This document shows positions 5,851 to 29,237 of a DNA stretch of 29,277 nt, piece after piece. The position numbers and the translations under genes were made by a program. The stretch lies in the IMG/VR virus record IMGVR_UViG_3300035670_000993, positions 1-29,277 of that record. One strand, given 5' to 3'. The DNA is from a virus. Position 1 is the first letter of the stretch. Every line of letters begins with the position of its first letter. The notes below the pieces were generated by a model. The model was given only the letters and a program-made list of their open reading frames with translations, ran no database searches and had not been told where the DNA came from.

Positions 5851-6438
5851 ATGGCAGTTGTATATCGCCACCGCAGGCTTGATAAGAACGAGGTATTCTA
5901 TGTCGGAATCGGCAAGAAGGAATCTCGTGCCTTTGATATGGTTCACCGCAATCATATTTGGAAGGGCATCAAGAGCCGTAGTGAGGTAGGCGTTGAGATT
6001 GTGGCATCTGACCTTTCTTGGGAGCTTGCTTGCGAACTTGAGCAGTTGATGATTTCCGAGTATGGTCGCATTGACCTGCATACAGGAAGCCTTGCGAATC
6101 TAACGGATGGCGGAGAAGGAACTCTTGGCGTAAAGCAAAGTCAGGAATCAATTGCCAAGCGTGTGGCAAAAAACACAGGCAGAAAGAATACCGAAGAAAC
6201 AAAGCGTAAAATGTCAGAGGCTCGCAAGGGTATTGTGTTTAGCGCAGAACATATTGAAAATCTACGCAAGTCGCATCTTGGTCAAAAGACCATGAATGGC
6301 AAAATGGTTGTAGACCTCCAAACAGGATTCTTTTACGATAGCCTACGGAACGGATGCCTCTCCGTTGGAGTTAATTACAAGGCAGAGTTTGCCAAAGTGA
6401 AACGAGGTAGTAACAAATCAAGATTCCAATTCGTATAG
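5851..6438 (+). CDS. GIY-YIG homing endonuclease with NUMOD3-like repeats
   Basis: VVYRH...VFYVGIGKKESRAF...RNHIWKG...ELEQLMISEYGR...LANLTDGGEG is a GIY-YIG catalytic core. It is followed by repeated SxETKRKMSEARKG / SAEHIENLRKSHLGQK (NUMOD3-like DNA-binding) motifs. The gene is free-standing between the portal and adaptor genes. Confidence 0.85.
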   Translation: MAVVYRHRRLDKNEVFYVGIGKKESRAFDMVHRNHIWKGIKSRSEVGVEIVASDLSWELACELEQLMISEYGRIDLHTGSLANLTDGGEGTLGVKQSQESIAKRVAKNTGRKNTEETKRKMSEARKGIVFSAEHIENLRKSHLGQKTMNGKMVVDLQTGFFYDSLRNGCLSVGVNYKAEFAKVKRGSNKSRFQFV

Positions 6439-6994: not shown

Positions 6995-7120
6995 ATGACT
7001 TGGGGACAAGGAGCAGTAAACAATAGCATCGGCTGGGGGAAGGCGTACGACAACGCCATCTCTTGGGGTGCGGTGTATGCATCGAGCAACACGGGAGACA
7101 CTAATATCACAGGAGCGTAA
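6995..7120 (+). CDS. 41-aa Trp/Gly-rich peptide translationally coupled to the tail fibre gene
   Basis: Hand-translated: MTWGQGAVNNSIGWGKAYDNAISWGAVYASSNTGDTNITGA*. Its stop TAA (7118-7120) overlaps the fibre ATG (7120) as TAATG. Internal W-G periodic repeat (WGQGA, IGWGKAY, ISWGAVY). Confidence 0.45.
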   Translation: MTWGQGAVNNSIGWGKAYDNAISWGAVYASSNTGDTNITGA

Positions 7121-10544: not shown

Positions 10545-10896
10545 GCCCGTAGAGGGCATTTATATGCGTTCTAATACACTTTCTACGCAAAGTGGGATGG
10601 TTGTATGGTTGGGCATATAATAATTCGTTAGAGGCGAGATTCTTCTTTTTTCTTTACTTGGTTTCTTTTTTCGTTCAAGTATTTGGTAAGTTGATATTAT
10701 ACTTGAGAGTTGATATTACTTGAGTTAATATATACCTTCAGGTATATTATAACTTACTTAACTAAGTTAACTTGTAAAAAAAACAAATAAAATTTTAATT
10801 ACGCAAGTACCTATGCTAATTTATAGTGATTCTAAATAATGAATGACCATATCTACATCTACTGGGATGACTTACCTTTGAGCAAACCAACAGGAA
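10545..10896. promoter_or_regulatory. AT-rich non-coding control region (candidate early promoter/operator and/or origin)
   Basis: Largest non-coding stretch in the genome, between the lysis and early modules. It contains tandem direct repeats, a 7-bp-arm hairpin (ATATACC-ttca-GGTATAT, 10730-10747), a 10-bp perfect palindrome (AAGTTAACTT, 10764-10773), polypyrimidine runs and an A8 run. Confidence 0.6.
10689..10724. repeat. Tandem direct repeat AGTTGATATTA(TA)CTTGAG x2
   Basis: 10689-10707 agttgatattatacttgag is followed immediately by 10708-10724 agttgatattacttgag. The copies are identical except for a 2-nt TA indel. Confidence 0.85.
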
Positions 10897-12412: not shown

Positions 12413-12420
12413 TATATTTG
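12413..12420 (+). promoter_or_regulatory. -7 promoter element TATATTTG (Bacteroidota type)
   Basis: An exact TAnnTTTG match lies 4 nt upstream of ACCAATCAGAAT-ATG (helicase start) and just after the terminator. The only upstream TTTG is 11 nt away, so the -33 element is unclear. Confidence 0.45.
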
Positions 12421-15965: not shown

Positions 15966-15996
15966 ATTGCGGAGTCAAATGGCCTGCCTATATTTG
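15966..15996 (+). promoter_or_regulatory. Bacteroidota-type promoter (-33 TTG, 20-nt spacer, -7 TATATTTG)
   Basis: TTG at 15966-15968 and TATATTTG at 15989-15996, located after a terminator and 10 nt upstream of AAAACCAATCAGA-ATG(16020). Confidence 0.55.
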
Positions 15997-16019: not shown

Positions 16020-16112
16020 ATGAAACACATACTCTCTTTTGTTGCTCAAGCCATCGCTGCTGCGGTAGTTGTATGGGCTTACCTATGGACTCTTCAAATC
16101 GTTGGGCTATGA
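16020..16112 (+). CDS. 30-aa hydrophobic (single TM) peptide
   Basis: Hand-translated: MKHILSFVAQAIAAAVVVWAYLWTLQIVGL*. The ATG abuts the leader motif, and the TGA overlaps the next ATG (ATGA at 16109-16112). Confidence 0.4.
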   Translation: MKHILSFVAQAIAAAVVVWAYLWTLQIVGL

Positions 16113-16435
16113 ATTTTGACTATCAAGATTTGAAGTTTTGGCTTGAGGAGCGTGACCTCGTACCACAGGCTTACTGGGATGCCCTTGAGGACTACGACCC
16201 CGACAACCTAAACTCTGACCAAGTGCTTGCCGAATGGCTTGGCTATGACCACGTCAACGACTTCTATGCCTACGAGATGGACATCACCTACGAGGAGGAG
16301 ACCTACATTGAGGATGGCTACACCAACAGAACCGCCTACCCTACATCATCCATCCACAACCCACCCCCTGCACTTGATTCGCAGATTTACTATGCGTACA
16401 TCAATTGGGCAACAAACGTAGCATCTGAAGAATGA
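16109..16435 (+). CDS. Highly acidic, Tyr-rich 108-aa early protein (candidate DNA mimic)
   Basis: By my count it has 24 Asp/Glu against 3 Lys/Arg, plus 13 Tyr. The start is moved from 16073 to ATG 16109, which is ATGA-coupled to the upstream peptide. It is the second gene of a promoter-proximal early operon. Confidence 0.55.
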   Translation: MNFDYQDLKFWLEERDLVPQAYWDALEDYDPDNLNSDQVLAEWLGYDHVNDFYAYEMDITYEEETYIEDGYTNRTAYPTSSIHNPPPALDSQIYYAYINWATNVASEE

Positions 16436-16602
16436 AAACCGCAACACATCTACTTCATCAGTTCAAGGACGAAAAAATAAGCAATTGGGCTTATGAGATG
16501 CTCAAGGATATTGAGATGAATCACCTGCGCTTTGCTTACGAGTCGGGTCAACGTGACAAGCAGACATTTGAAGAATGGTATCAAGCAACATTCAACAAAT
16601 AA
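16432..16602 (+). CDS. 56-aa hypothetical protein
   Basis: Hand-translated: MKTATHLLHQFKDEKISNWAYEMLKDIEMNHLRFAYESGQRDKQTFEEWYQATFNK*, with an ATGA overlap with the preceding gene. The track shows only an antisense ORF here (16450..16635). Confidence 0.45.
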   Translation: MKTATHLLHQFKDEKISNWAYEMLKDIEMNHLRFAYESGQRDKQTFEEWYQATFNK

Positions 16603-16635
16603 ACATTTTTTCTTACCTTTAACAAAACCAATCAA

Positions 16636-17406
16636 ATGAAAATCATAGAACTACTTGACGGAAGCACTTGGGACATCGAGACCCTAACTGCTCAAATGAA
16701 CGATGACTCGTTCTACTACGGCAACCTCTCAAAGAATGCCTTGTCATCATCGGCTTGCAAGCTGCTGCTGACCTCACCCAAGACCTACCACTACGTCACC
16801 AAATACGGCAGCGAGGACTCTGATGCCTTTGCCGTTGGTCGCTTGGTTCACCTGATGGCTCTTGAGCCTCATCGTGTTGCCGAGTACGATGTGATTGAGG
16901 TGCAAAGCAAGAACGCAAAGGCGTGGCAAGAAGCAAAAGGCAAGCGCAATATCTGCACCCGTAAGGAGTATGACGAAGCCCAACGCATCGCAGATGCTTT
17001 GCTACGCAACGAGAACGTACTTGGTATCATCACAGGCTGCGAGTTTGAAGTACCAAAGATTGGTATGATTGGCGGCTTGCCATTTAGGGCGAAGGCTGAC
17101 ATCTACGCTGATGGGTTTCTCGCAGACATCAAAAGTACCCAAGACCTGCGTGCCTTCCCTCATTCAGCTCGCAGATATGGTTATGACGTACAAGCGTTTA
17201 TCTACACCCGTTTATTTGGTGTACCGATTGACAAGTTCTTTTTTATCGCTATTGACAAAGGAAGCCTTGACATCGGCATCTACGGCATCAGCCCTGAATT
17301 CGTAGAGGAGGGAGAACGCAAGACAATGGAGGCCATTGAACTCTACAAGCAGTTCTTCATCTTGGGTGAGGACTTGGATTCATATACCATAGTAGGAACA
17401 CTCTGA
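16636..17406 (+). CDS. RecE/DUF3799-like PD-(D/E)XK exonuclease
   Basis: FAVGRLVHLMALEP, RAKADIYADGFLADIKSTQD (D...D-x-K) and YGYDVQAFIY (QxxxY) fit the PDDEXK exonuclease VIII-like family. The ATG abuts AAAACCAATCAA. Confidence 0.7.
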   Translation: MKIIELLDGSTWDIETLTAQMNDDSFYYGNLSKNALSSSACKLLLTSPKTYHYVTKYGSEDSDAFAVGRLVHLMALEPHRVAEYDVIEVQSKNAKAWQEAKGKRNICTRKEYDEAQRIADALLRNENVLGIITGCEFEVPKIGMIGGLPFRAKADIYADGFLADIKSTQDLRAFPHSARRYGYDVQAFIYTRLFGVPIDKFFFIAIDKGSLDIGIYGISPEFVEEGERKTMEAIELYKQFFILGEDLDSYTIVGTL

Positions 17407-17627
17407 TGAAAGCAACACTTGAATACGACCTACCCGATGAGCAAGACGAGTTTGAGAAGGCCGTCAACGGAGGCAAGTATGCCTACATCATTTGGGAGCT
17501 TGACCATTTCTTGAGAGCTAACACCAAGTACGCTCCTGACTCAATGCCTGATGAGGTTCACAAAGCATACGAATCAACAAGAGAAAAATTGCATTCATTA
17601 CTAACCGAAAACGATTTATCGCTATGA
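17406..17627 (+). CDS. Hypothetical protein
   Basis: 73-aa ORF with a TGATG overlap with the exonuclease gene. Confidence 0.5.
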   Translation: MKATLEYDLPDEQDEFEKAVNGGKYAYIIWELDHFLRANTKYAPDSMPDEVHKAYESTREKLHSLLTENDLSL

Positions 17628-17830
17628 GAGACCAATTTATGAGGATTGCAATGGCACGCCTCCGCAAGGTTTACCCCTTCAAACCCCAACGCAGGGCAGT
17701 TGCTGCAAAGATTTGGACAGAGCATCTTGAGCGTTACGCTATGCGTGAGTGGATGCGTACCGAGCAAGAGCTGAATGAACGCATGGACATCATCGGGCAG
17801 AACGGCAATACAGGCGAGCACTATGAGTAG
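17624..17830 (+). CDS. Hypothetical protein with C-terminal IIGQNGNTGEHY motif
   Basis: 68-aa ORF with an ATGA overlap. I recall the C-terminal IGQNGN.G.HY motif from unrelated phage small proteins of unknown function. Confidence 0.5.
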   Translation: MRDQFMRIAMARLRKVYPFKPQRRAVAAKIWTEHLERYAMREWMRTEQELNERMDIIGQNGNTGEHYE

Positions 17831-18764
17831 GCCCTTTGTGGTTGCATTCCACAAGCCTAATTCAGGCGTAGCCTATCACCGAGTATTCGCTCCGCTAATC
17901 TGCCACCAAGATGCGGATGTGATGTTCATTGAAAAGATTACGGACATTGAACCTGATATGTGGGCAAAGGTCACGCACATCTTTGCAAGCCGTGCTTTTC
18001 CTGTTGAGCCGTTTGCTGACTTCGTAAAGCTCTGCCGTAAGGAAGGCATCAAGCTAATCGTAGACCAAGACGATTGGTGGGTACTGCCCCCAAACCATCC
18101 CCTGAACGGAATCTATGGAGCCGCTATGAAAGAGCGCATCGTGCGCTCTATGAAAGCAGCAGATGAGGTTTGGGTAACCAACAAGCATCTTGCCTCAAAG
18201 GTGAAGAAGTACAATACCAACATCCGAATCATCCCTAACGCCATCAGCGTACCCACTTGGCAGATAAACCGAGAGCCAAGTGACAAAGTAAGATTCGGCT
18301 ACATCGGAGGTAACCACCACCAAGCAGACATCAGAGAATCAACCATTGACCTTACAGGCTACGAGGCATACGTTGCTGACGTAGATGGCTACCCCGAAAT
18401 GATGAAAGCACCATACAAGCTCAACACCTTCCCACCTCACCTGTACCATCGCCTGTACGACTTCTTTGACGTCAGCCTTGTGCCACTATCTACAAGCGAG
18501 TTCGCCAAGTGCAAGTCGCACCTAAAGATGCTTGAGGCAGGCTTTAGCCGTTGCGCTCTTATAGTGAGCAACACTCACCCCTATACTCCGTACATCACCA
18601 AAGACAACTGCATTGCAATCAACCACCCAAGTGAATGGGCAGGAGCAATCAAGAGACTAAACGACAACCCCAACCAAGTCGCTGACATAGCGGAATCGTT
18701 ATACGAGTACGTTCAAGACTACACCATGACCAAAATCAACGAACTCCGATGCTTTACATTGTAA
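17823..18764 (+). CDS. GT-B fold glycosyltransferase (GT1/GT4-like)
   Basis: IKLIVDQDDWW, FGYIGGNHH, and CKSHLKMLEAGFSRCALIVSNTHPYTPYI resembling the KS.LK.lEa...G.p.i.S..pY donor-binding region. The start is moved to ATG 17823 (MSRPFVVAF...), 8 nt before the upstream stop. Confidence 0.55.
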   Translation: MSRPFVVAFHKPNSGVAYHRVFAPLICHQDADVMFIEKITDIEPDMWAKVTHIFASRAFPVEPFADFVKLCRKEGIKLIVDQDDWWVLPPNHPLNGIYGAAMKERIVRSMKAADEVWVTNKHLASKVKKYNTNIRIIPNAISVPTWQINREPSDKVRFGYIGGNHHQADIRESTIDLTGYEAYVADVDGYPEMMKAPYKLNTFPPHLYHRLYDFFDVSLVPLSTSEFAKCKSHLKMLEAGFSRCALIVSNTHPYTPYITKDNCIAINHPSEWAGAIKRLNDNPNQVADIAESLYEYVQDYTMTKINELRCFTL

Positions 18765-19276
18765 CCCCCTGCTCACGTCCTCAAAACCTCAAGAGGATAA
18801 AACAGTACATCCCACCCTACGCTACGTGGGTGGTAATGATGGATGCCTCTACCAACCACAAGGAAGCAACAGGCGCAAGCGTAACCCACTACTCAAAGAA
18901 CACGGGATACTGGGGACACCCACTACGCAACGAGTTCCTTGACCTATACCAAGACCAATTCACACAAGATGACTGGGTATACTTCTTGGATGATGACAAC
19001 ATCCTACACCCGAAGTTCATTGTTGAATGGAACAACATCAACTCCCTTGACTCATCCATTGTGACGTGGGGACAAGAGGGAAGGCTACGCCCTACCGACC
19101 AACCGAAGGTGGGCAACATTGACACCGCCTGCTTTATGTTCAAACCCTACCACCTGCCAACGCTACGCTTTCAGATGGCATACGAGGCAGACGGTATGTT
19201 TGCACAAGCGGCAGCACTACAAGGCACGCTTATCTGCGTAGACCAGTATCTTTGCTACTACAACGCACTCAAATGA
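18749..19276 (+). CDS. GT-A fold glycosyltransferase (DxD motif)
   Basis: MLYIVTPCSRPQNLKRI at the N-terminus (Rossmann-like start) and WVYFLDDDNILHP (DxD). It overlaps the upstream gene by 16 nt. Confidence 0.5.
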   Translation: MLYIVTPCSRPQNLKRIKQYIPPYATWVVMMDASTNHKEATGASVTHYSKNTGYWGHPLRNEFLDLYQDQFTQDDWVYFLDDDNILHPKFIVEWNNINSLDSSIVTWGQEGRLRPTDQPKVGNIDTACFMFKPYHLPTLRFQMAYEADGMFAQAAALQGTLICVDQYLCYYNALK

Positions 19277-19800
19277 AAACGACCTCACAAATAGACGGGT
19301 GGTTCAACCACCAAGCAGCATACGATTTTCTGCTAAACGCAATGCCCAAAGACGGAACCTTCGTTGAGTTGGGTGCTTGGCTTGGCAAGTCCTCATCCTA
19401 CTTGTGCGACAAAGCAACAGGCCAAAACATATACATCGTTGACTCTTTCAAAGGGACGGCAGAATACTTGGACTCATACTACAAGCTCGCAAAGACCAAA
19501 GACATCTACCAATTGTTCTTGGAGAATATGGGTGACCGCAAGTACACCGCCATCAAAGCAACATCCAAAGCAGCAGCACGCAAGTTCAAAGCCCAGTCAC
19601 TGGATGTGGTATTTATAGACCTTGACCATTCATACGAAGCCGTCAAAGAGGACATCAAGCTATGGCTTCCCAAAGTAAAGAAGGGCGGCTACATAGCAGG
19701 AGACGACTACCACGAAAATTGGAAGGGAGTAATCCAAGCAGTAGACGAGCTACTTCCTCACGCCACCTTCATTGATGATTGTTGGATTTACCAAAAGTGA
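19273..19800 (+). CDS. Class I SAM-dependent methyltransferase, TylF/Methyltransf_24-like (sugar O-methyltransferase type)
   Basis: FVELGAWLGKSSSYL (SAM motif I), IYIVDSFKG and VVFIDLDHSYEAVKEDIKLWLPKVKKGGYIAGDDY. ATG 19273 forms an ATGA overlap with the GT-A gene. No DNA-methyltransferase motifs (DPPY, PCQ) are seen. Confidence 0.6.
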   Translation: MKTTSQIDGWFNHQAAYDFLLNAMPKDGTFVELGAWLGKSSSYLCDKATGQNIYIVDSFKGTAEYLDSYYKLAKTKDIYQLFLENMGDRKYTAIKATSKAAARKFKAQSLDVVFIDLDHSYEAVKEDIKLWLPKVKKGGYIAGDDYHENWKGVIQAVDELLPHATFIDDCWIYQK

Positions 19801-20060
19801 AAAACCACACAAAGGTCTACCTGAAGGAGATGGGCTTCAGTACAACCGATTGGATTCCTTGTGAGGTATGCGGAGCAACAGCCGTAGACATCCACCACAT
19901 AGAGTCAAGAGGGATGGGCGGCAGCAAACACGCAGACACGATTGAAAACCTGATGGCCCTGTGCCGTGAGTGCCACGTTGAGGCCGACTTCGGGACAAAC
20001 CTAAAGAAGGAGTTTTTAAAAGAGGTTCATTTGTCACATATACAAAGAGTGGCACGATAA
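19779..20060 (+). CDS. Small HNH endonuclease (terminase-associated type)
   Basis: CEVCG...DIHHIESRGMGGSKHADTIENLMALCRECHVEA is an HNH/zinc-finger core. It lies upstream of the terminase genes. An alternative GTG start at 19797 forms a GTGA overlap. Confidence 0.8.
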   Translation: MLDLPKVKNHTKVYLKEMGFSTTDWIPCEVCGATAVDIHHIESRGMGGSKHADTIENLMALCRECHVEADFGTNLKKEFLKEVHLSHIQRVAR

Positions 20061-20088
20061 TTGTCCTATATAGTTAAAATGACAAGCT

Positions 20089-20595
20089 ATGTGGAAAGAC
20101 ATTAAGGGCTACGAGGGAATCTATCAGGTTTCTAATGATGGCAAAATAAAAAACAAACTTGGTCTAATTACCGATGGGTGGGTGAATAATGACTATGGTC
20201 ACAAAAAAGTAAGGCTATATAAGGATGGCAAAAGAAAGGACTTCTATCTTCATCGCTTGGTCGCTGATGCCTTTGTAGAAAATTCAAGCAACAGACCGCA
20301 CGTGAATCATATTGACTCGAACCCATTAAACAACAAGGCATCAAATCTTGAGTGGTGTACTCACGCTGAAAATATGGCTCACGCAAAGAGCAACAACCGA
20401 TTTAACCGAGAAGGAGTAAAAGTGCTTGACACCTCCAATGGAAAGATATATGATTCTATTAAGGAGGCTTCCGACTCAATCGCTATGAAGCCAAACACTT
20501 TAGTTTACAAACTTCTTGGCAAACGACCAAACAACACGACCCTTGTTGCACTTCAAGCAACACACAACCACCACTTAGCCAAAAGGGTTATTTAG
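20089..20595 (+). CDS. NUMOD4-HNH homing endonuclease
   Basis: WKDIKGYEGIYQVSNDGKI (NUMOD4), HRLVADAFV, VNHIDSNPLNNKASNLEWCTHAENMAH (HNH_3), and a C-terminal IENR-like KIYDSIKEASDSIAMKPNTLVYKL. Confidence 0.9.
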   Translation: MWKDIKGYEGIYQVSNDGKIKNKLGLITDGWVNNDYGHKKVRLYKDGKRKDFYLHRLVADAFVENSSNRPHVNHIDSNPLNNKASNLEWCTHAENMAHAKSNNRFNREGVKVLDTSNGKIYDSIKEASDSIAMKPNTLVYKLLGKRPNNTTLVALQATHNHHLAKRVI

Positions 20596-20614
20596 AAAAC
20601 ATCCAAACAGAACT

Positions 20615-20932
20615 ATGCCAAAAGGAAACCCAAACCTTGTCAAGGGAGGCCCAAGCCTCAACCCCGCAGGAAGACCAGCAGGCATCCCTAACAAAAGCAC
20701 AAACAAAATCCGTGAGGCGTTTCAGAAGCTCATCGAAGACAACCTTGAGAATATGACCCTATGGCTTACTCAAGTTGCTGGCGATGACCCGAAGGGCGCA
20801 CTTGACCTGCTGAACAAGATGGCGGAGTACACGACACCCAAGCTTGCACGGGTAGAGAACTCCCACGAAGCAGCAGATGAACTCACCCAAATCAAAGTAG
20901 AGATTGTCCGTACTGGAAGTAAAGACGAGTGA
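20615..20932 (+). CDS. Putative terminase small subunit
   Basis: 105 aa immediately upstream of and overlapping TerL. The N-terminal GNPNLVKGGPSLNPAGRPAGIPNK motif is typical of a class of small terminase-like (DUF5681-type) proteins. Confidence 0.5.
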   Translation: MPKGNPNLVKGGPSLNPAGRPAGIPNKSTNKIREAFQKLIEDNLENMTLWLTQVAGDDPKGALDLLNKMAEYTTPKLARVENSHEAADELTQIKVEIVRTGSKDE

Positions 20933-22064
20933 ACTCTTTGAAAAGAACTACACCGCACCCACACGGATAGTAGTCAATCAAGGAGGCTCACGCTCAGGTA
21001 AGACCTACTCCATCTTGCAGATGCTTATTGTCATCGCAATGCAAGAAAAGGGTAAGGTCTTTTCTATTGTGCGTAAGTCGCTGCCATCACTCAAGATGAC
21101 GGCCTACCGTGACTTCTTTGAGATACTCAACAAACTTGATTTGTACGATGAGTCACGCCATAACAAGAGCGACTATACCTACACCCTCAACGGCAACCTA
21201 TTTGAGTTCATTTCACTTGACCAACCGCAGAAGAAGCGTGGAGCAAGACGTGACTACCTATTCTGCAACGAGGCCAACGAGCTTTCTTGGGAGGACTTCT
21301 TTCAGCTCTTGGTTCGTACCACAGGAAAGATATGGATTGACTACAACCCATCTGATGCGTTCCATTGGATTTACGACCGCCTGCTGACCCGTGATGATGT
21401 AACGTACATACAAAGTACCTACAAGGACAACCCCTTTCTTGACAAGTCCATCGTAGAGGAGATTGAAAGGCTGCAAGGAACGGACGAGGACTATTGGCGC
21501 ATCTACGGCTTGGGTGAGCGTGGAATGAGCCGTGCTACTATCTTTCAGTTCGGCAACGCAGAAGTCCCACAGGATGCAACGCTCTTGGCCTACGGGATGG
21601 ACTTTGGCTACACCAACGACCCTACCGCCCTCGTGGCGGTCTACAAGTCGGGGGACAACCTGTACCTTGATGAGCTGATCTACCGCACGGGGCTAACCAA
21701 CCCCGACATTAGCAACCATCTCAAGAGCCTAAATCTTGACAGGCGTTCAGAGATATTTGCTGACTCTGCTGAACCCAAATCTATTGAGGAGCTGCATCGT
21801 ATGGGATGGAACGTGAAACCCACGCAGAAGGGCGCAGATAGCGTTATAGTGGGCATTGATGTGCTGAAGCGGCATAAGATATTCGTAACCCCACGAAGCA
21901 ACAACCTAATCAAGGAAATGCAGAACTACAAATGGGTAGAAGACAAAAATGGAAACCTAATTAATAAGCCAGTCGACTACCTAAATCACGGAATCGATGC
22001 GGTGCGCTATGCCACCTACAACAAACTCAGCCGACCGAACTACGGGCGGTATGCCATACGCTAA
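20904..22064 (+). CDS. terL: Terminase large subunit (PBSX/XtmB, Terminase_3 type)
   Basis: Walker A NQGGSRSGKTYS, Walker B-like DYLFCNEANEL, and nuclease-domain motifs YGMDFGYTNDPTALV, ADSAEPKSIEEL and HGIDAVRYA. The only possible start after the in-frame TAG (20898) and before Walker A is TTG 20904. Confidence 0.93.
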   Translation: MSVLEVKTSELFEKNYTAPTRIVVNQGGSRSGKTYSILQMLIVIAMQEKGKVFSIVRKSLPSLKMTAYRDFFEILNKLDLYDESRHNKSDYTYTLNGNLFEFISLDQPQKKRGARRDYLFCNEANELSWEDFFQLLVRTTGKIWIDYNPSDAFHWIYDRLLTRDDVTYIQSTYKDNPFLDKSIVEEIERLQGTDEDYWRIYGLGERGMSRATIFQFGNAEVPQDATLLAYGMDFGYTNDPTALVAVYKSGDNLYLDELIYRTGLTNPDISNHLKSLNLDRRSEIFADSAEPKSIEELHRMGWNVKPTQKGADSVIVGIDVLKRHKIFVTPRSNNLIKEMQNYKWVEDKNGNLINKPVDYLNHGIDAVRYATYNKLSRPNYGRYAIR

Positions 22065-22085
22065 ATTCAAAAGGTTATTTTAAAG

Positions 22086-22816
22086 ATGAGATTGATAGTC
22101 CCAAACCAAATGAGCGAGATAAAGCTCGCTGACTACCAAAAGTTCATACGACTGGAGGGAGATGAGGAGTTCCTATCTCGTAAGGCCATTGAAATCTTTT
22201 GTGGTCTGTCTATGGATGTCATCCTAAAGATGAAGGCATCAAGCCTGCAAAAGACCGCAGGGGTATTGTCTAAAGCCTTCACCGAGAAGCCTGCGTTTCA
22301 GCAGAGGTTCATTATTGGCAAACAAGAGTTCGGGTTTATCCCCTCGCTTGATGAAATCACAGTAGGTGAGTTCAACGACTTGGATGAGTACATCACGGAC
22401 TTTCAGCAGATGCACAAGGCAATGGCGGTAATGTACCGCCCTGTGACTGCTCGCCTAGCCAACCGATACGACATCGAAGAATATCAAGGCACCTCTAAGT
22501 ACGCTGACTTGATGAAGGCTGCACCGCTAAACGTGGTGATAGGTGCGATGGTTTTTTTTTGGACTTTAGGAAAAGATTTGTCGCTGGCTTCCCTGACATC
22601 TTTGGCGAAGGAGAAACAGATGAATTTAGCACCGCTTCGCAATTTGCTAAAAAATGGGGATGGCTTCCTATATACCACCAGCTCGCTGGCGGAGATGCTC
22701 TCAAATTTGAAGCCGTTGCCAAACTCCCAGCAGCATTCGCATTCACCTACCTCACGTTTGAAAAAGACCGACTTGACGCTGAGAGAAGAATCCTTGAAAA
22801 ACAATTAAAGAAATGA
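22086..22816 (+). CDS. Conserved virion-module protein needing a -1 shift at a T9 run (tail-assembly-chaperone-like architecture, or a homopolymer indel)
   Basis: Frame 0 runs 22086..22808. At 22552-22560 (GTTTTTTTTTGG) the -1 frame opens and runs to TGA 22814-22816, which overlaps the next gene's ATG (ATGA). The -1 product (DFRKRFVAGFPDIFGEGETDEFSTASQFAKKWGWLPIYHQLAGGDALKFEAV...RILEKQLKK) looks far more protein-like than the frame-0 tail (LSLASLTSLAKEKQMNLAPLRNLL...SQQHSHSPTSRLKK). Confidence 0.55.
22552..22560 (+). other. T9 homopolymer: candidate -1 ribosomal/transcriptional slippage site (T_TTT_TTT in frame 0)
   Basis: Frame-0 codons are GTT TTT TTT TGG, so X_XXY_YYZ = T_TTT_TTT. Both downstream frames are open. 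Confidence 0.5.
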
Positions 22817-23280
22817 GGCAGTTCTACGACATCACCCAAAAGCTCAAGACCACCCTTGAGGCGCATAGCCAAGTCAACGTAGTGACGTTTGGCGATGTGT
22901 ACGATGTAGACCTAAACAAGCAGACCATCTTCCCGCTATCGCACATCATGATAAACCAAGCGTCCTTTGAGGGACAGGTGGTACGGATGAGCGTTAGCCT
23001 TATTTGTATGGATGTCATTGATGAGACCAAAGAGAACCCACGTGACCAAGCAGAGCCGTTCTACGGAACGAGCAACGTACAAGACATCCTAAACACGCAG
23101 CTTGCGGTCATCAATGATGTGGTGCAGGAGCTACGCAGAGGGCAGTTGTACTCTGACCTTTACCAGTTGGCTGGCACCCCTACGTGCCTGCCCTTCACCG
23201 AGCGTTTTGAAAATCTGCTTGCTGGATGGACTGCGACCTTTGACGTGCTGCTTGCTAACACAGAAATCAGCATCTGCTAA
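22813..23280 (+). CDS. Putative head-tail connector / tail completion protein
   Basis: 155-aa ORF adjacent to the gp10-like gene. Assignment is mostly positional. Confidence 0.3.
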   Translation: MRQFYDITQKLKTTLEAHSQVNVVTFGDVYDVDLNKQTIFPLSHIMINQASFEGQVVRMSVSLICMDVIDETKENPRDQAEPFYGTSNVQDILNTQLAVINDVVQELRRGQLYSDLYQLAGTPTCLPFTERFENLLAGWTATFDVLLANTEISIC

Positions 23281-23829
23281 ATGAAGCAAGATAGGGTAAA
23301 GGCAAGCCTACAAAAGTTTGCTGATGGTGTGGTGCTACAAGCCAAAGCCAACCTCGCACGTGAGAACAAGAACGTCACGGGCAACCTCACGCAGTCTATT
23401 GACTACGACCTTGAGGTAGGCCCAAACTCGTTCTTCTTGCGTTGGAAGATGGATGACACCGCCCCCTATTGGAAGTTTCAGGACTTGGGTGTGCAGGGTA
23501 AGTCATCATCTGCCAAAGCACCAAGCAGCCCTTTTAGATTTGGTACTGGTAGTAGCGGTATGCGTGGTGGCCTTACGAGAGCCATCAACGAATGGGTAAA
23601 GAAGCGCAGGTTCCAGTTCAGGGATGAGAAGGGTAGGTTTATGAGCTACGACAACACGGCATTCCTAATCACCCGCAGCGTTTACAACAAGGGCATCCGC
23701 ACCACTAACTTCTTCACCAATCCTTTTAGGTTGCAGTTTGAGCAGTTGCCGCAAGAGATTGCTTCTGCCTTTGCACTTGACCTCAAGGACTTCCTACAAT
23801 TCACGTTACAACCTAAGCCACCGAAATAA
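23281..23829 (+). CDS. HK97 gp10-like head-tail joining protein
   Basis: VLQAKANLARENKNVTGNLTQSIDYDLEVG...APYWKFQDLGVQG resembles the gp10 family pattern (ak..aP..TG.L..SI......YA.y.EfG), here with an insertion. It starts 1 nt after the previous stop. Confidence 0.45.
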   Translation: MKQDRVKASLQKFADGVVLQAKANLARENKNVTGNLTQSIDYDLEVGPNSFFLRWKMDDTAPYWKFQDLGVQGKSSSAKAPSSPFRFGTGSSGMRGGLTRAINEWVKKRRFQFRDEKGRFMSYDNTAFLITRSVYNKGIRTTNFFTNPFRLQFEQLPQEIASAFALDLKDFLQFTLQPKPPK

Positions 23830-25049
23830 TGAGCGTTCCTGTAATATCAACCCCAAGCAGCATAGCCCTTGCAAGAAGTCCGCTTTTTGTAACGGGTAAA
23901 AACAACACCCTTGTAAATGATTCGCTTGATGCGATGACGGTGAACCTAAAGATTTATTCGGGGGTGAGTACGTTGCCTGCGGGAGCAGCAAACTACACCC
24001 TCTCAAAGACCTACTCAATCAACGAGGTCATCAACTTTGAGATAAGCGACTTGGTGCGTTCAGAGTTCGGTCACGACTTCACGATTTGGGATAATACGGG
24101 ATATAGCCAAAGCCCATTAAATGAGGCGTTGTGGGTTACTCCGTATGGTGATTGGTTGTACTCCGACAACGGAGCAGTACCCGAAACGCTACCATTTGCA
24201 ACAGGCAATACCTACGCATTTCTTGCTACCGATGGATGGGCTAACCGAAACAACATTGCACCGACTGCCTATACTGGTTTGATTATGGCTACAAGCCGTG
24301 AGCGTCAGGTGCTGCCAACTAATTCGGAAGTCATTGCAATCAACAATAGCACCGCTAACGACTTTGGCTACATTGCAATCAAATATAGCGATGAGGACGC
24401 ATTCTATTCGTTTAACACAATTGGGCCACCTAACGGATTGCCTCCCGACCCTACCACAACCAACACCCGTGACTTGGTTGCGTACATTGGAGTCGGCCCC
24501 GCCAACCTAAATGCTTGGATGGCCTCAAGCTCTGCACGACCATCAGGTCACCCAAACGCAACATACTACGATGTATACTTCCACGAAACCGATGGCACGC
24601 TAATCACCACCGTGAGGTACAACCTCATCTGCGAGCCGAAGTACACGCCCTACCAAATAGCATTTATCAACCGCTATGGGGTAGCGGACTTCATCACGTT
24701 CTTCAAGCGCAGCCAAGAGCAGGGCAACTTCACGCAGGACTCGTACCAAAAGAGCATCTACAACGATGGCTTCACTACGCCATCTTTAGAGGTGGGTAAG
24801 TACCAATCCTACAACGTCAACTCTCGCAACAATCTAACGCTCAACACGGGCTTCGTAGATGAGGACTACGATGAGGTAATCAAAGACATCCTCACAAGCG
24901 AGTACGTGGCGGTATTGGATAACGGCACTTGGGTAAGTGTAGTGCCGCAGCGTGGTAGTGTAGAATACCAAAAGCACATAAACCAAAAGCTGATAAACTA
25001 CACCCTTACCTTCGACTACGGATTTGATGAGCGCAGTTTAGTACGATGA
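23829..25049 (+). CDS. Tail structural protein (406 aa; distal-tail/baseplate-like)
   Basis: Large beta-rich ORF that is TAATG-coupled upstream and ATGA-coupled downstream within the tail module. No catalytic motifs recognised. Confidence 0.45.
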   Translation: MSVPVISTPSSIALARSPLFVTGKNNTLVNDSLDAMTVNLKIYSGVSTLPAGAANYTLSKTYSINEVINFEISDLVRSEFGHDFTIWDNTGYSQSPLNEALWVTPYGDWLYSDNGAVPETLPFATGNTYAFLATDGWANRNNIAPTAYTGLIMATSRERQVLPTNSEVIAINNSTANDFGYIAIKYSDEDAFYSFNTIGPPNGLPPDPTTTNTRDLVAYIGVGPANLNAWMASSSARPSGHPNATYYDVYFHETDGTLITTVRYNLICEPKYTPYQIAFINRYGVADFITFFKRSQEQGNFTQDSYQKSIYNDGFTTPSLEVGKYQSYNVNSRNNLTLNTGFVDEDYDEVIKDILTSEYVAVLDNGTWVSVVPQRGSVEYQKHINQKLINYTLTFDYGFDERSLVR

Positions 25050-27190
25050 ACAAGGTCGACATTTACGTCAATGGCTTCCGCCTTGACATCTTCGATGATG
25101 AGCAGATCAGCATCAACCTATCCGTACAGAACGTACAGGATATCTCTAAGGTGTTCACGGACTTTACGCAGGGCTTCACGGTACCTGCAAGCCCGAACAA
25201 CAACGAGATACTCCAGCACTACTACAACCCATTTATAACGTCCTCAAGCATCACTACCCGCACATCGGGGCAGGATGAGTGGCAGAACATCTTTACGAAT
25301 TGGGAGTCGTACAACACGATTTGGAATGCGGGGGGTACTACTGATAAGGTGGTCAATACGTTTGATGCTCGGTTTAGGCAGTCAGCAAGAATCGAAATAA
25401 ACTCGCTCCCATTCCGCACGGGGGTGATAGAGCTTGACTCGGTTCAGTTAAAAGGCACGGAGCCTTATGCTTACTCGCTTACGTTCTATGGTGACGTTGT
25501 TGGCTTGTCTGACTTATTTGCAGAGGACTACCTCTACGACCTTGACTTCAGCGCATACAACCACGCATACACGGATGATGCGGTATTCGATAGGGTAACC
25601 ACCGACACCTACGCACCCATCTTTTACCCGCTTATGTCACCTGTGCGTAACTGGTACTACAATTCAGCAACAAGCGACCACGACCCGCTAAACATTCACT
25701 ACCATACAGGTGGTCACGGGAATGCTCACGGCATCAACTACTACGAGCTGAAGCCAGCAATCAAGGTCACTACGATACTTGATGCTATGGAAGCGAAGTA
25801 CGGCATCACCTTCACGGGTTCGTTCATCTCATCGGCTCCATTCACCGACCTTGCTTTGTGGCTACACCGAGCAGAGGGCTATATGTTTGACAATGGCGAA
25901 GACATAGCTTGGACGCTGATTGACTTCGACCGAAACACGGGAAGCGGTAGTGACTTCGACTTGACCACAGAAACGTGGACAAACCTTGTAGACAACGACT
26001 ACCAGTTCTCTGTAACGATGACAAACGTCAATGAGAACTATGAACTTGGTGTATTTGTGAATGGTCAGTTGGATGCGACTGCTAAAGTGAATGCACATCC
26101 ATCAAGCTCGGTCACTACCACTTGGGACTTGTATGTTCCATTGAATACAGATGTGCAGCTATTCATCCGTCCGCAGGCCGTGTCAAGCATCACATTCCAA
26201 GCAACAAACTACGACTGCTACTTGTTAGACCGAGAGACGGGTATACCATCTGACCAAGAATTCGAGGTAGACCAAACCTCATCGCAGAGCATTGGCTTCG
26301 AGGTAGACATCACGCAACTGATGCCCGAAATCAAGGTAAAGGATTTCCTTGCTGGGCTAATCAAGATGCACAACCTCGTAATCGTACCTAACAACTCAAG
26401 CTCGTTTCTCCTGCAACCTCTTCAGGATTGGTACGATGATGGCACACCACAGGACTACCAAACGTATTTGGACATCACCCAGTACACGGTAAACCGCCCG
26501 CCAATCTACCGAGAGATTGAGTACAATTACCAAGAAACGCAGCAGATACTTGGAGCGCAGTACCGCAACACCAACAACACAGGTTTCGGTGACTTGCGTG
26601 CGTTCTTCAACTTTGACGCTGACACCTTGCAGATAGGCTTACCATTTGAATGCCCATTGTTTGAGAGGTTGACTGACCAAGATGGTGGCGGTCTCACCAA
26701 CATAATGGTCTACAAAAGCATCACCAATGAGCTTGATGATGATGGCGTAACATTCAAGCCGTACTTGGGTGCGCCCATTTTATTCTACGCCAAGTTCGGT
26801 CTTGATATATCAGACAACTCGGTTTCGTTCATTGACTCGGACGGAACTACTGAAAGGGAGATAAACGACTGCTGGTATGCCAATACCTCAAATAGCTTCA
26901 CAAGCGTAGCGCAAGCGAACTCTATTTGTTTTGGTGCAGACATCGACCCGTTCTTTTTGCAGAGTGTAAGCAAGAGCCTATACTACAACTACTGGACGCA
27001 GTACATCACCGACCTCTACGCCAAGAGCAGAAGGTTGTACAGAGTAGAAGCGGTGCTTCCTATGGGTGAGATCATCAAGATGGACTTAAAGAACCAAGTG
27101 ATTTGGAACAATCAAAAGTTCATTGTGAACACCGCCCAGCTCAATATGACCACAGGCAAAGCAACATTTGAACTCCTCAACGTAGTATGA
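25046..27190 (+). CDS. Large tail structural protein (714 aa; tip/baseplate-hub-like)
   Basis: I recall the N-terminus MNKVDIYVNGFRLDIFDDEQISINLSVQNVQDISKVFTDFTQGFTVPASPNNNEIL from tail proteins of Bacteroidota phages. Size and position fit a tail-tip protein. Confidence 0.5.
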   Translation: MNKVDIYVNGFRLDIFDDEQISINLSVQNVQDISKVFTDFTQGFTVPASPNNNEILQHYYNPFITSSSITTRTSGQDEWQNIFTNWESYNTIWNAGGTTDKVVNTFDARFRQSARIEINSLPFRTGVIELDSVQLKGTEPYAYSLTFYGDVVGLSDLFAEDYLYDLDFSAYNHAYTDDAVFDRVTTDTYAPIFYPLMSPVRNWYYNSATSDHDPLNIHYHTGGHGNAHGINYYELKPAIKVTTILDAMEAKYGITFTGSFISSAPFTDLALWLHRAEGYMFDNGEDIAWTLIDFDRNTGSGSDFDLTTETWTNLVDNDYQFSVTMTNVNENYELGVFVNGQLDATAKVNAHPSSSVTTTWDLYVPLNTDVQLFIRPQAVSSITFQATNYDCYLLDRETGIPSDQEFEVDQTSSQSIGFEVDITQLMPEIKVKDFLAGLIKMHNLVIVPNNSSSFLLQPLQDWYDDGTPQDYQTYLDITQYTVNRPPIYREIEYNYQETQQILGAQYRNTNNTGFGDLRAFFNFDADTLQIGLPFECPLFERLTDQDGGGLTNIMVYKSITNELDDDGVTFKPYLGAPILFYAKFGLDISDNSVSFIDSDGTTEREINDCWYANTSNSFTSVAQANSICFGADIDPFFLQSVSKSLYYNYWTQYITDLYAKSRRLYRVEAVLPMGEIIKMDLKNQVIWNNQKFIVNTAQLNMTTGKATFELLNVV

Positions 27191-27345
27191 AGCAGACGTA
27201 TTTAGGTTATTTGGTAGAGGTACTTCAGTCGGATGATTGGTATGGGGTAAGTGAAGCCGTTGATATAGCAAAAGGCAAATACGCCCTTCCAAGAAATTGG
27301 AGCGAAGGCGTTAAACTCATCAAAAGGGAATGGCAGAAGAAGTAA
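27187..27345 (+). CDS. 52-aa hypothetical protein between the tail-tip and tape-measure-like genes
   Basis: Hand-translated: MKQTYLGYLVEVLQSDDWYGVSEAVDIAKGKYALPRNWSEGVKLIKREWQKK*. It has an ATGA overlap upstream and a 16-nt overlap with the next gene. Confidence 0.4.
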   Translation: MKQTYLGYLVEVLQSDDWYGVSEAVDIAKGKYALPRNWSEGVKLIKREWQKK

Positions 27346-29237
27346 ACATTAATATCAGAATCTCATCGAACTTAGACTCTACGGCTGCAAAAGCCTCAAA
27401 GTCTATTGATGAGGTTACAAAAAGTGCGGATGACGCTTCCAAGTCCATTGAGAAGACGGGCACTGTAACCGAGAAGGCCACCCAGCTTATTGACAAATTC
27501 ACGGGTGGTCTTGCGAGCAAGATTCAAAGTATTACCAAATACAGTAAAGAGCTTGGTACTGGATTGGTTACCGCATTCAAGGCAGGTACTAAAGGCGCAT
27601 CCTCGCTTCAGAAGGCCATCATCTCTACGGGTATTGGTGCGCTTGTCGTTGCCGTAGGCTTGCTTGTTGCTTACTGGGATGACATCGTTGGATTTATTAG
27701 CGGAGCATCAACCGAGCAAACGAAACTACTTGCAGAAACCGAGAAGACCGCCCAAGCGCAGCAGGCAGCTTTAGATGCAATCTCCCTTCAGGAGAACTCA
27801 CTTCGCTTGGCGGGTAAGTCAGAGAAGGAGATTCGAGACTTAAAGGTTCAGCAGACCAACGAAACCATAACGGCTCTTGAGGCTCAACTGCAAGCGCAGG
27901 AGACCATCAAGAAGTCGCAGGTAGATGCGGCAAAGCGGAATAAAGATATTCTTCAGGGAATCATCAGGGCTATAACAATACCCCTCACCACCCTGCTTGC
28001 TACCGTTGATTCGGTGGGCAAGGCTTTAGGCAAGGACTTTGGGCTTGAGAAGCAGTTTAGTGGTGGCCTTGCGAATCTCGTATTTAACCCTGATGAGGTA
28101 GCCGAAGCAGCAGATGAAAGCATCAAAGAAACGCAAGACCAACTTGCCAAGCTAAAGAGCGCAAGAGATGGCTTCTTGTTGCAGGACAAAAAGGAGCAGG
28201 CAGATGCCGCAAAAGCAGCGTCCGACAAAGCGGCAAAAGACGCAGAGGCTCTGATAGCAAAGGAGAAAGAAACCCAAGATGCGATTGCTGCCCTCAACAA
28301 AGAAACGCTTGACCTGATTGCTGCCAACCAAGAGTCGGCACTAAAGGATGAGACTGAGCGTGAGAACCTACGCTTCGCCAACTTACAGGCAAAGCTCACC
28401 CGTGAGCGTGAGGAGCAGATAAAAGCAGCAGAAGGCAACCAAGAACTGATTGCTGCAATCAATGCCAAGTATGACGCTTTGAGCGTGCAGGCAGAACAAG
28501 CCCACGCTACCACGTTAGAGAACATTAGCAAGGCATCGCAGGACAAGCTCAATGCCCAGCTTCAGCAGGCGGCAGACATCCGCACCAGCCTGATTGAAAA
28601 CGAGCAAGAGCGTGAGCTTGCAACAATCAAAGTTAAGTACGAGCAAGACCTACTCGCTGCTGAGAAGAACGAAGAGCTAAAGGCAGCTTTGACTGCAAGG
28701 TATGAGGCTGACAAATTTGCCATTAAAAAGAACTACGCAGACCAAGAGTCAAAGCTCCGAAGAGACACCCTCAACGCAGAGCTTGATGTAGTTAAAGGTG
28801 CGTTTGATGCCATCGGTCAGATTGCTGGTGAGCAGTCAGTATTGGGCAAGGCATCAGCCGTAGCAAGTGCGGTAATTAACACCTACCAAGCAGCAACAAA
28901 CGCTCTCGCCAATACCCCTGCTCCTCCACCCTTTCCACAAATTGCAGCAGGTGTAGCCATTGCTTCGGGCCTTGCAAGTGTTCGTAAGATTCTGCAAACG
29001 CCAGTACCCGATGGAAATGGTGGATTGAGTTCGGGCGGTGGTGGCGGTAGCCTACCAAGCGCACCTACGATTCAGCAACCGCAGTTTAACATAGTAGGTC
29101 AAAGTGGAACCAACCAACTAGCGCAGAGCATAGGCGGTCAATTCAGCCAACCCATCCGTGCCTATGTGGTAGGTGGTGACGTTACAACCTCACAACAACT
29201 GGAGCGTCAACGAGTAAAAACAGCAACATTCGGATAA
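27330..29237 (+). CDS. Tape-measure-like protein (or internal/ejection protein)
   Basis: 635 aa. It has a hydrophobic segment (AIISTGIGALVVAVGLLVAYW) and a long A/E/K/Q-rich coiled coil. The C-terminal part is Gly/Pro-rich (NTPAPPPFPQIAAGVAIASGLASV, GGLSSGGGGGSLP) and ends ...AYVVGGDVTTSQQLERQRVKTATFG, a tape-measure-like C-terminus in my recollection. Confidence 0.6.
   Translation: MAEEVNINIRISSNLDSTAAKASKSIDEVTKSADDASKSIEKTGTVTEKATQLIDKFTGGLASKIQSITKYSKELGTGLVTAFKAGTKGASSLQKAIISTGIGALVVAVGLLVAYWDDIVGFISGASTEQTKLLAETEKTAQAQQAALDAISLQENSLRLAGKSEKEIRDLKVQQTNETITALEAQLQAQETIKKSQVDAAKRNKDILQGIIRAITIPLTTLLATVDSVGKALGKDFGLEKQFSGGLANLVFNPDEVAEAADESIKETQDQLAKLKSARDGFLLQDKKEQADAAKAASDKAAKDAEALIAKEKETQDAIAALNKETLDLIAANQESALKDETERENLRFANLQAKLTREREEQIKAAEGNQELIAAINAKYDALSVQAEQAHATTLENISKASQDKLNAQLQQAADIRTSLIENEQERELATIKVKYEQDLLAAEKNEELKAALTARYEADKFAIKKNYADQESKLRRDTLNAELDVVKGAFDAIGQIAGEQSVLGKASAVASAVINTYQAATNALANTPAPPPFPQIAAGVAIASGLASVRKILQTPVPDGNGGLSSGGGGGSLPSAPTIQQPQFNIVGQSGTNQLAQSIGGQFSQPIRAYVVGGDVTTSQQLERQRVKTATFG

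Follow-up and report, generated by a model that had tools for sequence, protein, structure and literature searches.

A coupled glycosyltransferase and O-methyltransferase cassette, with virion proteins as candidate acceptors, in a clade of small metagenomic phages

A coupled three-gene module in a 29-kb phage genome

The DNA analysed here, IMG/VR virus record IMGVR_UViG_3300035670_000993 (positions 1 to 29,277, hereafter the window), is a phage genome of about 29 kb in which all genes lie on the + strand. It carries a module of three translationally coupled + strand genes, 1,978 bp in length or 6.8% of the window, which encode two glycosyltransferases (GTs) of different folds, hereafter GT-B and GT-A, and a methyltransferase (MT):

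17823-18764, + strand, GT-B fold glycosyltransferase, GT4-like, 313 aa (full open reading frame, ORF, 17775..18764)
18749-19276, + strand, compact DxD GT-A fold glycosyltransferase, 175 aa
19273-19800, + strand, O-methyltransferase of the Methyltransf_24/TylF/CmcI class, S-adenosylmethionine (SAM)-dependent class I, 175 aa
17624-17830, + strand, 68-aa ORF directly 5' of the GT-B gene

The GT-B start overlaps the 68-aa ORF by 8 nt, the GT-A and GT-B genes overlap by 16 nt, and the ATG of the MT gene at 19273 overlaps the end of the GT-A gene as ATGA. The GT-B start was set at the ATG at 17823 because its homologues, judged by lengths and alignments, are 312-313 aa long, and the MT start at 19273 is supported by homologues of 175 aa. 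An initial annotation, made from the sequence alone, had given these three ORFs and overlaps exactly, and its estimate of the module's size (about 2 kb, 7% of the genome) agrees with the measured one. It had also placed the module between recombination and packaging genes, which is where PHROG and Pfam scans of the window ORFs above about 90 aa put it, with an exonuclease gene upstream and two HNH genes, a small-terminase-like gene and the large terminase gene (TerL) downstream.

GT-B matches phrog_7162 'glycosyltransferase' at 6e-48 and bears the JGI label 'glycosyltransferase involved in cell wall biosynthesis'. Since its Pfam score is under the curated cut-off (PF13524, 13.1 bits vs 25), it is assigned to the Glyco_trans_1 clan at the fold or clan level only; some of its distant homologues carry PF13524, PF13692 or PF00534. 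Sequence-profile searches against the PDB gave weak matches only (E 1e-4 to 0.1), and the folds of both GTs were therefore settled by structure prediction. The AlphaFold2 model of GT-B, obtained with an alignment of diverse homologues (predicted local distance difference test score, pLDDT, 93; predicted template-modelling score 0.90), consists of two Rossmann-like domains with an inter-domain cleft, and Foldseek matches it to GlgM, MshA, PimB', PglA and BshA in the PDB (E 1e-12 to 1e-9, template-modelling score 0.63-0.71). G15, H19, R20, the DxDDW motif at 81-86 and K231-S-x-L-K-x-x-E238 are invariant in 19/19 diverse homologues; in the last region K231, S232, L234, K235, E238 and A239 are unchanged down to 31% identity, and a profile alignment places this K/E-helix region on the nucleotide-sugar-binding motif of PglA and MshA. 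As modelled, GT-B is probably a GT4-like retaining glycosyltransferase.

The GT-A model (pLDDT 95) is a single Rossmann-like GT-A domain, as in GT2-like glycosyltransferases. Its PDB matches are GlcAT-P/S (GT43, 3.8e-8), WrtF, AvpGT and TarP, and its best viral matches, in BFVD, are multidomain GTs of giant viruses. TPCSR, DDDN, W-x-Q, DT, DG and YYN are invariant across 19 diverse homologues, and the DxD motif, D81-D82-D83, is unchanged in all 19. The protein falls under the Pfam cut-off (PF13641, 18.5 bits vs 27) and matches no PHROG and no NCBIfam model, NCBIfam having returned no match for any of ten proteins. Its family, which counts 996 representative clusters at E<=1e-10, is distinct and without a curated Pfam, NCBIfam or PHROG model, and a tblastn search of cultured phages with GT-A and two of its distant homologues found no GT-A match. 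The family is acidic, with an isoelectric point (pI) of 4.6-6.5 in 18/19 members. The model and motifs indicate that GT-A is probably a small DxD inverting glycosyltransferase. The initial annotation had proposed the two folds from a KSxLKxLE-type region in GT-B and a DxD motif in GT-A, and the predicted structures, their Foldseek neighbours and the invariant motifs agree with it.

MT scores above the cut-offs of both PF13578 Methyltransf_24 (70.4 bits, cut-off 26.3, 2.8e-19) and PF05711 TylF (24.6 bits, cut-off 23, 1.7e-5), as had been anticipated from its motifs, and its fusions with GT-A homologues, described below, agree with that assignment. The sequence has a SAM loop, ELGAWLGKS, and two acidic motifs, FIDLDHSYE and GDDY, of a kind typical of metal-dependent O-methyltransferases, and MT is probably metal-dependent as well. 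Neither DPPY nor PCQ occurs in it, in keeping with the earlier remark that it has no DNA-methyltransferase motifs. The repeated fusion to, or adjacency with, GT-A suggests a sugar-type O-methyltransferase. All three module proteins appear soluble, with no hydrophobic segment and a maximum Kyte-Doolittle 19-residue window below 1.0. In the profile and structure-prediction check that the initial annotation had proposed, the two GTs group with glycosyltransferases and MT with Methyltransf_24/TylF profiles, and the enzymatic assignment of the three proteins can be held with good confidence.

MT also matches phrog_2675, which is labelled 'DNA methyltransferase'. The phrog_2675 profile has 599 positions and corresponds to proteins like Pas34 of the Actinoplanes phage phiAsp2 (596 aa), which was originally annotated 'putative O-methyltransferase' and is labelled 'DNA methyltransferase' in RefSeq (NC_005885 pas34). 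Pas34 is a GT-A::Methyltransf_24 fusion, as judged from a structural match of GT-A and a sequence match of MT. Synechococcus phage records likewise label Methyltransf_24-type O-methyltransferases 'DNA methyltransferase'. The use of this label for Methyltransf_24-type proteins, including GT-A fusions, looks like a propagated mis-annotation, and the label of this methyltransferase class in phrog_2675 and RefSeq needs correction.

Conservation and genomic company of the module

Homologues number in the hundreds in metagenomes, on contigs of about 28-32 kb that belong to the same phage type. The frequency of the three genes was counted in 54 related metagenomic loci picked through the neighbouring exonuclease gene, with full coverage of the interval required; because the loci were chosen via the exonuclease, the choice introduces no bias as to the module. 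GT-A occurs in 54/54 of them, an adjacent GT-B in 53/54 and MT in 46/54. Both GTs belong to the core gene set of this large metagenomic clade, and MT is a frequent, dispensable third gene. Ratios of nonsynonymous to synonymous substitution rates (dN/dS) against six relatives are 0.09-0.13 for GT-B, 0.07-0.13 for GT-A and 0.11-0.15 for MT, a range close to that of TerL and the exonuclease, and all three genes are under purifying selection.

More distant relatives vary in content. Two of them (L089 and L115) have GT-A without an adjacent GT-B, a third (L001) has GT-B together with a phrog_14179 GT and a TOD1/MUCI70-like GT and no MT, and a fourth (L002) has GT-B alone. Two genes that follow GT-B were considered as GT-A candidates and rejected: the 180-aa gene of L001 is not a homologue according to BLAST and is the phrog_14179 GT according to PHROGs, and the 172-aa gene of L002 is homologous instead to the sigma-like gene of the window.

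The module region is also an insertion hotspot. In about one sixth of the relatives a 287-292-aa PP-loop protein, absent from the window, directly follows GT-A or MT (for example L039 8504-9382, L019 1560-2438 and L063 8518-9381). It belongs to phrog_424 'PAPS reductase', shows the motifs SLSGGKTSS and, at the C-terminus, CVGCFH...CDSGYCGL, and has no Pfam or NCBIfam match. An N6/N4 DNA methyltransferase (DPPY) is inserted between GT-B and GT-A in another relative (L049 1492-2133), and an HNH endonuclease ahead of GT-B in yet another (L012 1806-2303).

Homologues in cellular genomes and prophages cluster in Chitinophagaceae, and candidate promoters of the window, described below, are of the Bacteroidota type; a Bacteroidota host was deduced from these two observations. 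The IMG identifier 3300042355 is a Lake Mendota sample, and many related contigs have IMG identifiers in the same numeric range. The hosts of the clade, as far as sequence indicates, are probably freshwater Bacteroidota. One near-complete clade genome, L089 (CAYVNT010000014.1, 30.6 kb), was deposited in a metagenome-assembled genome (MAG) of 'uncultured Ruminiclostridium sp.'; this placement is probably a binning artefact and not a host signal.

Outside the clade GT-A and MT travel together. Single-polypeptide GT-A::Methyltransf_24 fusions are encoded in Ilyomonas (L097) and Flavihumibacter (L100) chromosomes, in the metagenomic proteins P0404 and P0396, and in phiAsp2 as Pas34. GT-A and MT thus appear, from their gene arrangements, to form a mobile pair that is kept as one unit across phages, prophages and bacteria. 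In an unrelated large phage (L005) the two genes are adjacent and have a second methyltransferase and a GDP-mannose-dehydratase-like epimerase as neighbours, a combination that points to a methylated deoxyhexose, and this cassette is followed directly by ClpP protease, TerL and head genes. The gene order in a Chitinophaga japonensis prophage is TerS, TerL, GT-A, MT24, a 232-aa ORF, a GT-B-like gene and portal, and in phiAsp2 the tail operon closes with a GT, the GT-A::MT fusion and a second GT. GT-A homologues are also fused to further GT2 domains, to TPR repeats with DUF6445, and to a PLOD (collagen hydroxylysine) GT domain.

In another phage a GT-A homologue (P0195, L003 2613-3458) has an N-terminal fusion to a MazG-like NTP pyrophosphatase and sits between ThyX/DUF3310 and ERF/exonuclease genes; this single context hints that a member of the GT-A family might take part in nucleotide or DNA chemistry. 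In three cellular genomes of two phyla (Ilyomonas, L097 2543-12240; Flavihumibacter, L100 732-12173; a Gemmataceae MAG, L105 1637-12563) the GT-A::Methyltransf_24 fusion gene comes after an eCIS_core array, with one to three eCIS_core (DUF4157) proteins immediately 5' of it, and a 740-800-aa GT2+Methyltransf_24 protein is encoded beside the fusion gene. This conserved cellular locus would link the GT-A/MT pair to cargo-type proteins of contractile injection systems.

These contexts raise the possibility that the acceptor is a non-structural host or phage protein, modified for takeover, or a small molecule or nucleotide, the reaction inactivating, for instance, a nucleoside-type antiviral or immune signal. 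The fusion genes that directly follow effector-type arrays would fit such a role, glycosyltransferase effectors of contractile injection systems being known (Afp18), as would the nucleotide-metabolism neighbourhood of the MazG::GT-A fusion and the fact that AvpGT, among the closest GT-A structures, was crystallised with the nucleoside Ara-A. Yet two GTs and a sugar O-methyltransferase build an oligosaccharide, which would be unusual for mono-glycosylation of the toxin or inactivating type, the window has no defence- or signal-related neighbour, and the repeated position of the cassette beside packaging and head genes would be left unexplained. An acceptor of this kind is therefore considered quite unlikely.

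DNA and the host envelope as acceptors

Another possibility is that the GTs glycosylate a base of the phage DNA and that MT methylates the sugar, which would block restriction or CRISPR. Phage GT-A (TarP/JGT-like, R...DDD...E-D) and GT-B (BshA/MshA-like) enzymes that glycosylate 5-hydroxymethylcytosine have been described (bioRxiv 10.1101/2023.12.21.572611), and the models of the window GTs share PDB neighbours with them (TarP, BshA and MshA). The known DNA-hypermodification clusters, namely T4 alpha/beta-GT, the C5-methyltransferase + 5mYOX + GT clusters (Pyle et al., bioRxiv 10.1101/2023.12.21.572611) and the ThyA-homologue + arabinosyltransferases of RB69/DLP3, resemble the module also in their mono- to tri-saccharides and variable cassettes. 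The module comes after recombination genes, some relatives carry a DNA methyltransferase or PAPS-reductase-like gene in or next to it, the MazG::GT-A fusion lies beside ThyX, and the GTs are core in the clade, all of which would suit a DNA target.

In the known phage pathways, DNA glycosylation depends on a hydroxylated base, whose source is either a ThyA homologue or a C5-methyltransferase with 5mYOX/TET (including the systems of bioRxiv 10.1101/2023.12.21.572611). The scans of the window ORFs revealed no thymidylate-synthase-like, C5-methyltransferase, TET/5mYOX or nucleotide-sugar gene, as the initial annotation had noted for hydroxymethylase, thymidylate-synthase-like and nucleotide-sugar genes, and every unassigned ORF, at 167 aa or less, is too small to encode the hydroxylated-base enzyme. 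Since this defining enzyme was looked for and not found, the module stands outside the known DNA-glycosylation pathways. According to the same study, about 65% of phage GT contigs are without a DNA-modification partner (Pyle et al., bioRxiv 10.1101/2023.12.21.572611). The window yielded no phage DNA polymerase, the acidity of the GT-A family does not favour a nucleic-acid acceptor, and the T4 glucosyltransferases are not in the top 50 structural matches. A sugar O-methyltransferase, present in the window, is not part of the DNA-hypermodification clusters compared, and sugars with an O-methyl group are not known on DNA.

A further observation concerns restriction sites, five palindromes being strongly depleted in the window or missing from it:

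CATG, window, 5 observed vs 130 expected
GATC, window, 4 observed vs 117 expected
CTAG, window, 9 observed vs 80 expected
CGCG, window, 0 observed vs 59 expected
CCGG, window, 0 observed vs 55 expected

Observed/expected ratios are 0.00-0.11 in the window; in relatives, over 1.47 Mb (loci L009-L088 and L114-L184), they are 0.03-0.15. T4-like modified phages show little restriction-site avoidance. As an indirect sign, the clade-wide avoidance thus suggests heavy, long-standing Type II restriction pressure on unmodified DNA, and not blanket hypermodification. Given the missing hydroxylated-base enzyme, the missing DNA polymerase and the palindrome avoidance, DNA glycosylation is very unlikely.

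The structural neighbours of the two GTs would also be compatible with remodelling of the host envelope, in which the soluble GTs and MT would act on lipid- or nucleotide-linked intermediates of lipopolysaccharide (LPS), O-antigen or capsule. Sugar addition or a methyl cap might then mask the receptor, alter chain length, or spare progeny from being lost on debris and superinfected cells. GT-B resembles GT4 enzymes with lipid-linked or membrane acceptors (PglA, PimA/B' and the methylmannose-polysaccharide mannosyltransferase), its JGI label points in the same direction, and GT-A resembles TarP, a prophage teichoic-acid GT, WrtF and PglI-like enzymes. Moreover, methyl capping is a chain-terminating signal in O-polysaccharide synthesis (WbdD), and the variable GT content of the cassette is reminiscent of the diversity of O-antigen clusters. 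The module differs from Gtr-type seroconversion systems, however, in that it encodes no flippase, no GtrA/GtrC-like or other membrane protein and no hydrophobic segment, and no integrase, repressor or other lysogeny gene was found in the scans of the window. The GTs are instead core genes of a 29-kb phage that looks virulent from its gene content, and in the Chitinophaga prophage the cassette lies between TerL and portal, a late-operon position unlike that of lysogenic-conversion genes. Envelope remodelling is therefore judged unlikely. Of the three targets that the initial annotation had put forward, DNA is thus disfavoured, while virion proteins and host envelope glycans stand as conjectural acceptors.

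Virion proteins as candidate acceptors

The genes around the module, all on the + strand, and one promoter candidate are as follows; unless another source is given, assignments come from the PHROG and Pfam scans:

start 87, + strand, head protease
1834-2760, + strand, capsid-like protein, with a strong hairpin terminator after the gene
start 3811, + strand, portal
7120-8766, + strand, tail fibre
start 9708, + strand, amidase
start 12320, + strand, primase/helicase
start 14431, + strand, sigma-like protein
15989..15996, + strand, candidate Bacteroidota-type -7 promoter element TATATTTG (sequence match)
16636-17406, + strand, PD-(D/E)XK exonuclease (phrog_412), upstream of the module
start 19779, + strand, HNH gene, downstream of the module
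20089-20595, + strand, homing HNH (phrog_59), between the terminase-associated HNH and the small-terminase-like gene
start 20615, + strand, small-terminase-like protein
start 20904, + strand, large terminase TerL
22086-29237, + strand, tail genes

The element TATATTTG resembles the Bacteroidota -7 element TAnnTTTG and occurs in four + strand copies (3384, 11726, 12413 and 15989), each a short way upstream of a gene, where 0.54 copies would be expected over both strands. The copy at 12413 is inside the start of the annotated primase/helicase ORF, so that the true start of this gene may be later. Between 15989 and TerL there is no further copy and no convincing + strand terminator, and no intergenic gap from 16073 to 27190 exceeds 35 nt; a scan of 14-23 kb for sigma-70 promoters and terminators did no better than on shuffled sequences. 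I infer that transcription begins at the element at 15989 and continues as one unit across the exonuclease gene, the GT/MT module and the terminase genes.

Some features of the window stand apart from this question. The homing HNH at 20089-20595 has no counterpart in most relatives and is probably a recent mobile insertion, and a second gene of the homing-endonuclease type (phrog_314) lies at 5851-6438. The sole long intergenic region (10545-10896, 352 bp) is AT-rich, contains direct repeats such as GTTGATATTA(TA)CTTGAG, and is probably an origin or early promoter region. The tail fibre has many copies of a repeat ending ...GNVGIGT(S/T/A)SP..., with 24% Ser+Thr. A nucleotide search with positions 17000-21000 against 50,697 phage records returned only a 72-nt match in an HNH gene, and no cultured relative.

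An attractive hypothesis is that the cassette glycosylates virion proteins. The three genes would constitute a cytoplasmic glycan-building cassette, transcribed late together with packaging and structural genes, in which each GT would add one sugar taken from the host nucleotide-sugar pool and MT would O-methylate the sugar placed by GT-A. The product would be a short mono- to di-saccharide glycan with an O-methyl cap, attached in the cytoplasm during assembly to one or more virion proteins (capsid, tail or fibre), and cassette variation among relatives, with or without MT, with or without GT-B, or with swapped GTs, would diversify the glycan. I infer the identity of the sugars, their order of addition, the co-transcription and the acceptor alike. 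A virion target fits best because the enzymes are soluble and, in four phage backgrounds unrelated to one another, the module has terminase, portal, head or tail genes as neighbours, because the gene array is uninterrupted from 16073 through the terminase and tail genes, and because the fusion partners of GT-A include protein-type ones (TPR, PLOD-GT) and mycobacteriophages and chloroviruses offer precedents.

The closest precedent is found in mycobacteriophages, whose capsid and tail-tube glycosylation is known (Freeman et al. 2023, Cell Host Microbe, as cited in PMC12619734). Che8, Corndog and Myrna have soluble phage GTs, some with an O-methyltransferase, as in the window module, and decorate capsid and tail proteins with short glycans in the cytoplasm, the gene content of the clusters varying between relatives, as it does here. 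The differences lie in the host phylum, probably Bacteroidota here, the much smaller genome of the window, and the acceptor and glycan, which for the window are conjectural. A tblastn search of GT-B, GT-A and MT against the 50,697 phage records gave no match to mycobacteriophage GTs; only the MT24 domain of Pas34 matches methyltransferases of cluster-K mycobacteriophages. The pas33-pas34-pas35 genes of phiAsp2, at the end of the structural operon, resemble the module in consisting of a GT, a GT-A::Methyltransf_24 fusion and a GT, and the domain order in Pas34, GT-A then MT, is the gene order in the window. They differ in that Pas34 fuses both predicted activities into 596 aa, the likeness amounting to 29% identity for MT and being at the level of structure only for GT-A; no GT4-like GT-B homologue has been shown there.

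Among virulent phages, the phi92/rV5-like group (Justusliebigvirus, Phapecoctavirus) has a cluster, gp163-gp166, that includes two proteins homologous to GT-B along their whole length (gp164 and gp163; 28-30% identity, E to 1e-25), and these are coupled to small proteins of GT-A-like type. This cluster differs from the module in having four GTs and no methyltransferase, and in lying between endolysin and replication genes of 150-kb myoviruses; its GT-A-like proteins have no detectable homology to the window GT-A, and a literature search found no published function for it. The phrog_14179 GT that L001 pairs with GT-B has a 187-position profile and phi92 gp166 is 187 aa long, a comparison of lengths only. 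By analogy, the chlorovirus PBCV-1 offers a virus-encoded GT + GT + sugar O-methyltransferase system in A064R, where the capsid glycan is the work of two rhamnosyltransferase domains and a methyltransferase domain; A064R acts in the cytoplasm on the major capsid protein, and it differs in being a single multidomain protein of a eukaryotic virus. The best viral matches of the GT-A model, multidomain GTs of giant viruses, are a further point of likeness.

Several observations weigh against virion proteins as the acceptor. Homology to the mycobacteriophage GTs proven to glycosylate virions is not detectable, and co-transcription with late genes is a prediction from sequence. The best cultured relatives of GT-B, those of the phi92/rV5-like four-GT cluster, are encoded amid replication genes, and the fold likeness to LPS, teichoic-acid and small-molecule GTs fits other acceptors equally well. 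In relatives, the module region takes up DNA-related inserts (N6/N4 DNA methyltransferase, PAPS-reductase-like and HNH genes), and one GT-A homologue carries a fused MazG-like NTP pyrophosphatase and is encoded beside ThyX. Taking both sides together, the probability that the cassette glycosylates virion proteins is put at about 0.4. The locus can be described as a phage-encoded glycan-building cassette with an uncurated GT-A family, and filing it as a virion-glycosylation system would be premature.

As to the site of modification, the Thr/Ser-rich N-terminus of the capsid protein (1834-1866, MATTTSITTSYAG) is conserved as MATTTSITT(S/N) in 80/80 related capsid genes retrieved, and is a possible glycan acceptor. 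Another candidate did not hold. The initial annotation had pointed to peptides that match the Bacteroidota D-S/T-A O-glycosylation motif; SADTLDKG in the capsid and DTDTLTN and ADTASGA in the fibre are indeed present, but the number of D-[ST]-[AILVMT] triplets is that expected by chance from composition (2 vs 1.7 in the capsid, 3 vs 2.8 in the fibre), and the motif argument was discarded. This type of Bacteroidota glycosylation is, besides, a periplasmic process that uses lipid-linked glycans and does not concern cytoplasmically assembled virions.

Phage GTs are common in metagenomes, mostly without an assigned target, and the present locus is a compact, clean case in a 29-kb genome, from a clade with hundreds of metagenomic members in which the two GTs are core and MT is optional, and with good evidence against a DNA target. 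A full picture, in which a large and abundant clade of virulent phages with small genomes, probably of freshwater Bacteroidota, would coat its virion proteins with a short O-methylated glycan, made by the uncurated GT-A and its Methyltransf_24 partner and carried perhaps on MATTTSITTS, is put forward tentatively, and with somewhat more reserve than virion glycosylation as such. If the acceptor is a virion protein, virion glycosylation would be widespread outside actinophages, with consequences for the stability of phages, for their contact with receptors and for immune recognition. A GT-A family of about 1,000 clusters and its Methyltransf_24 partner would then acquire a function, as a new protein-glycosylating GT-A/O-methyltransferase pair.

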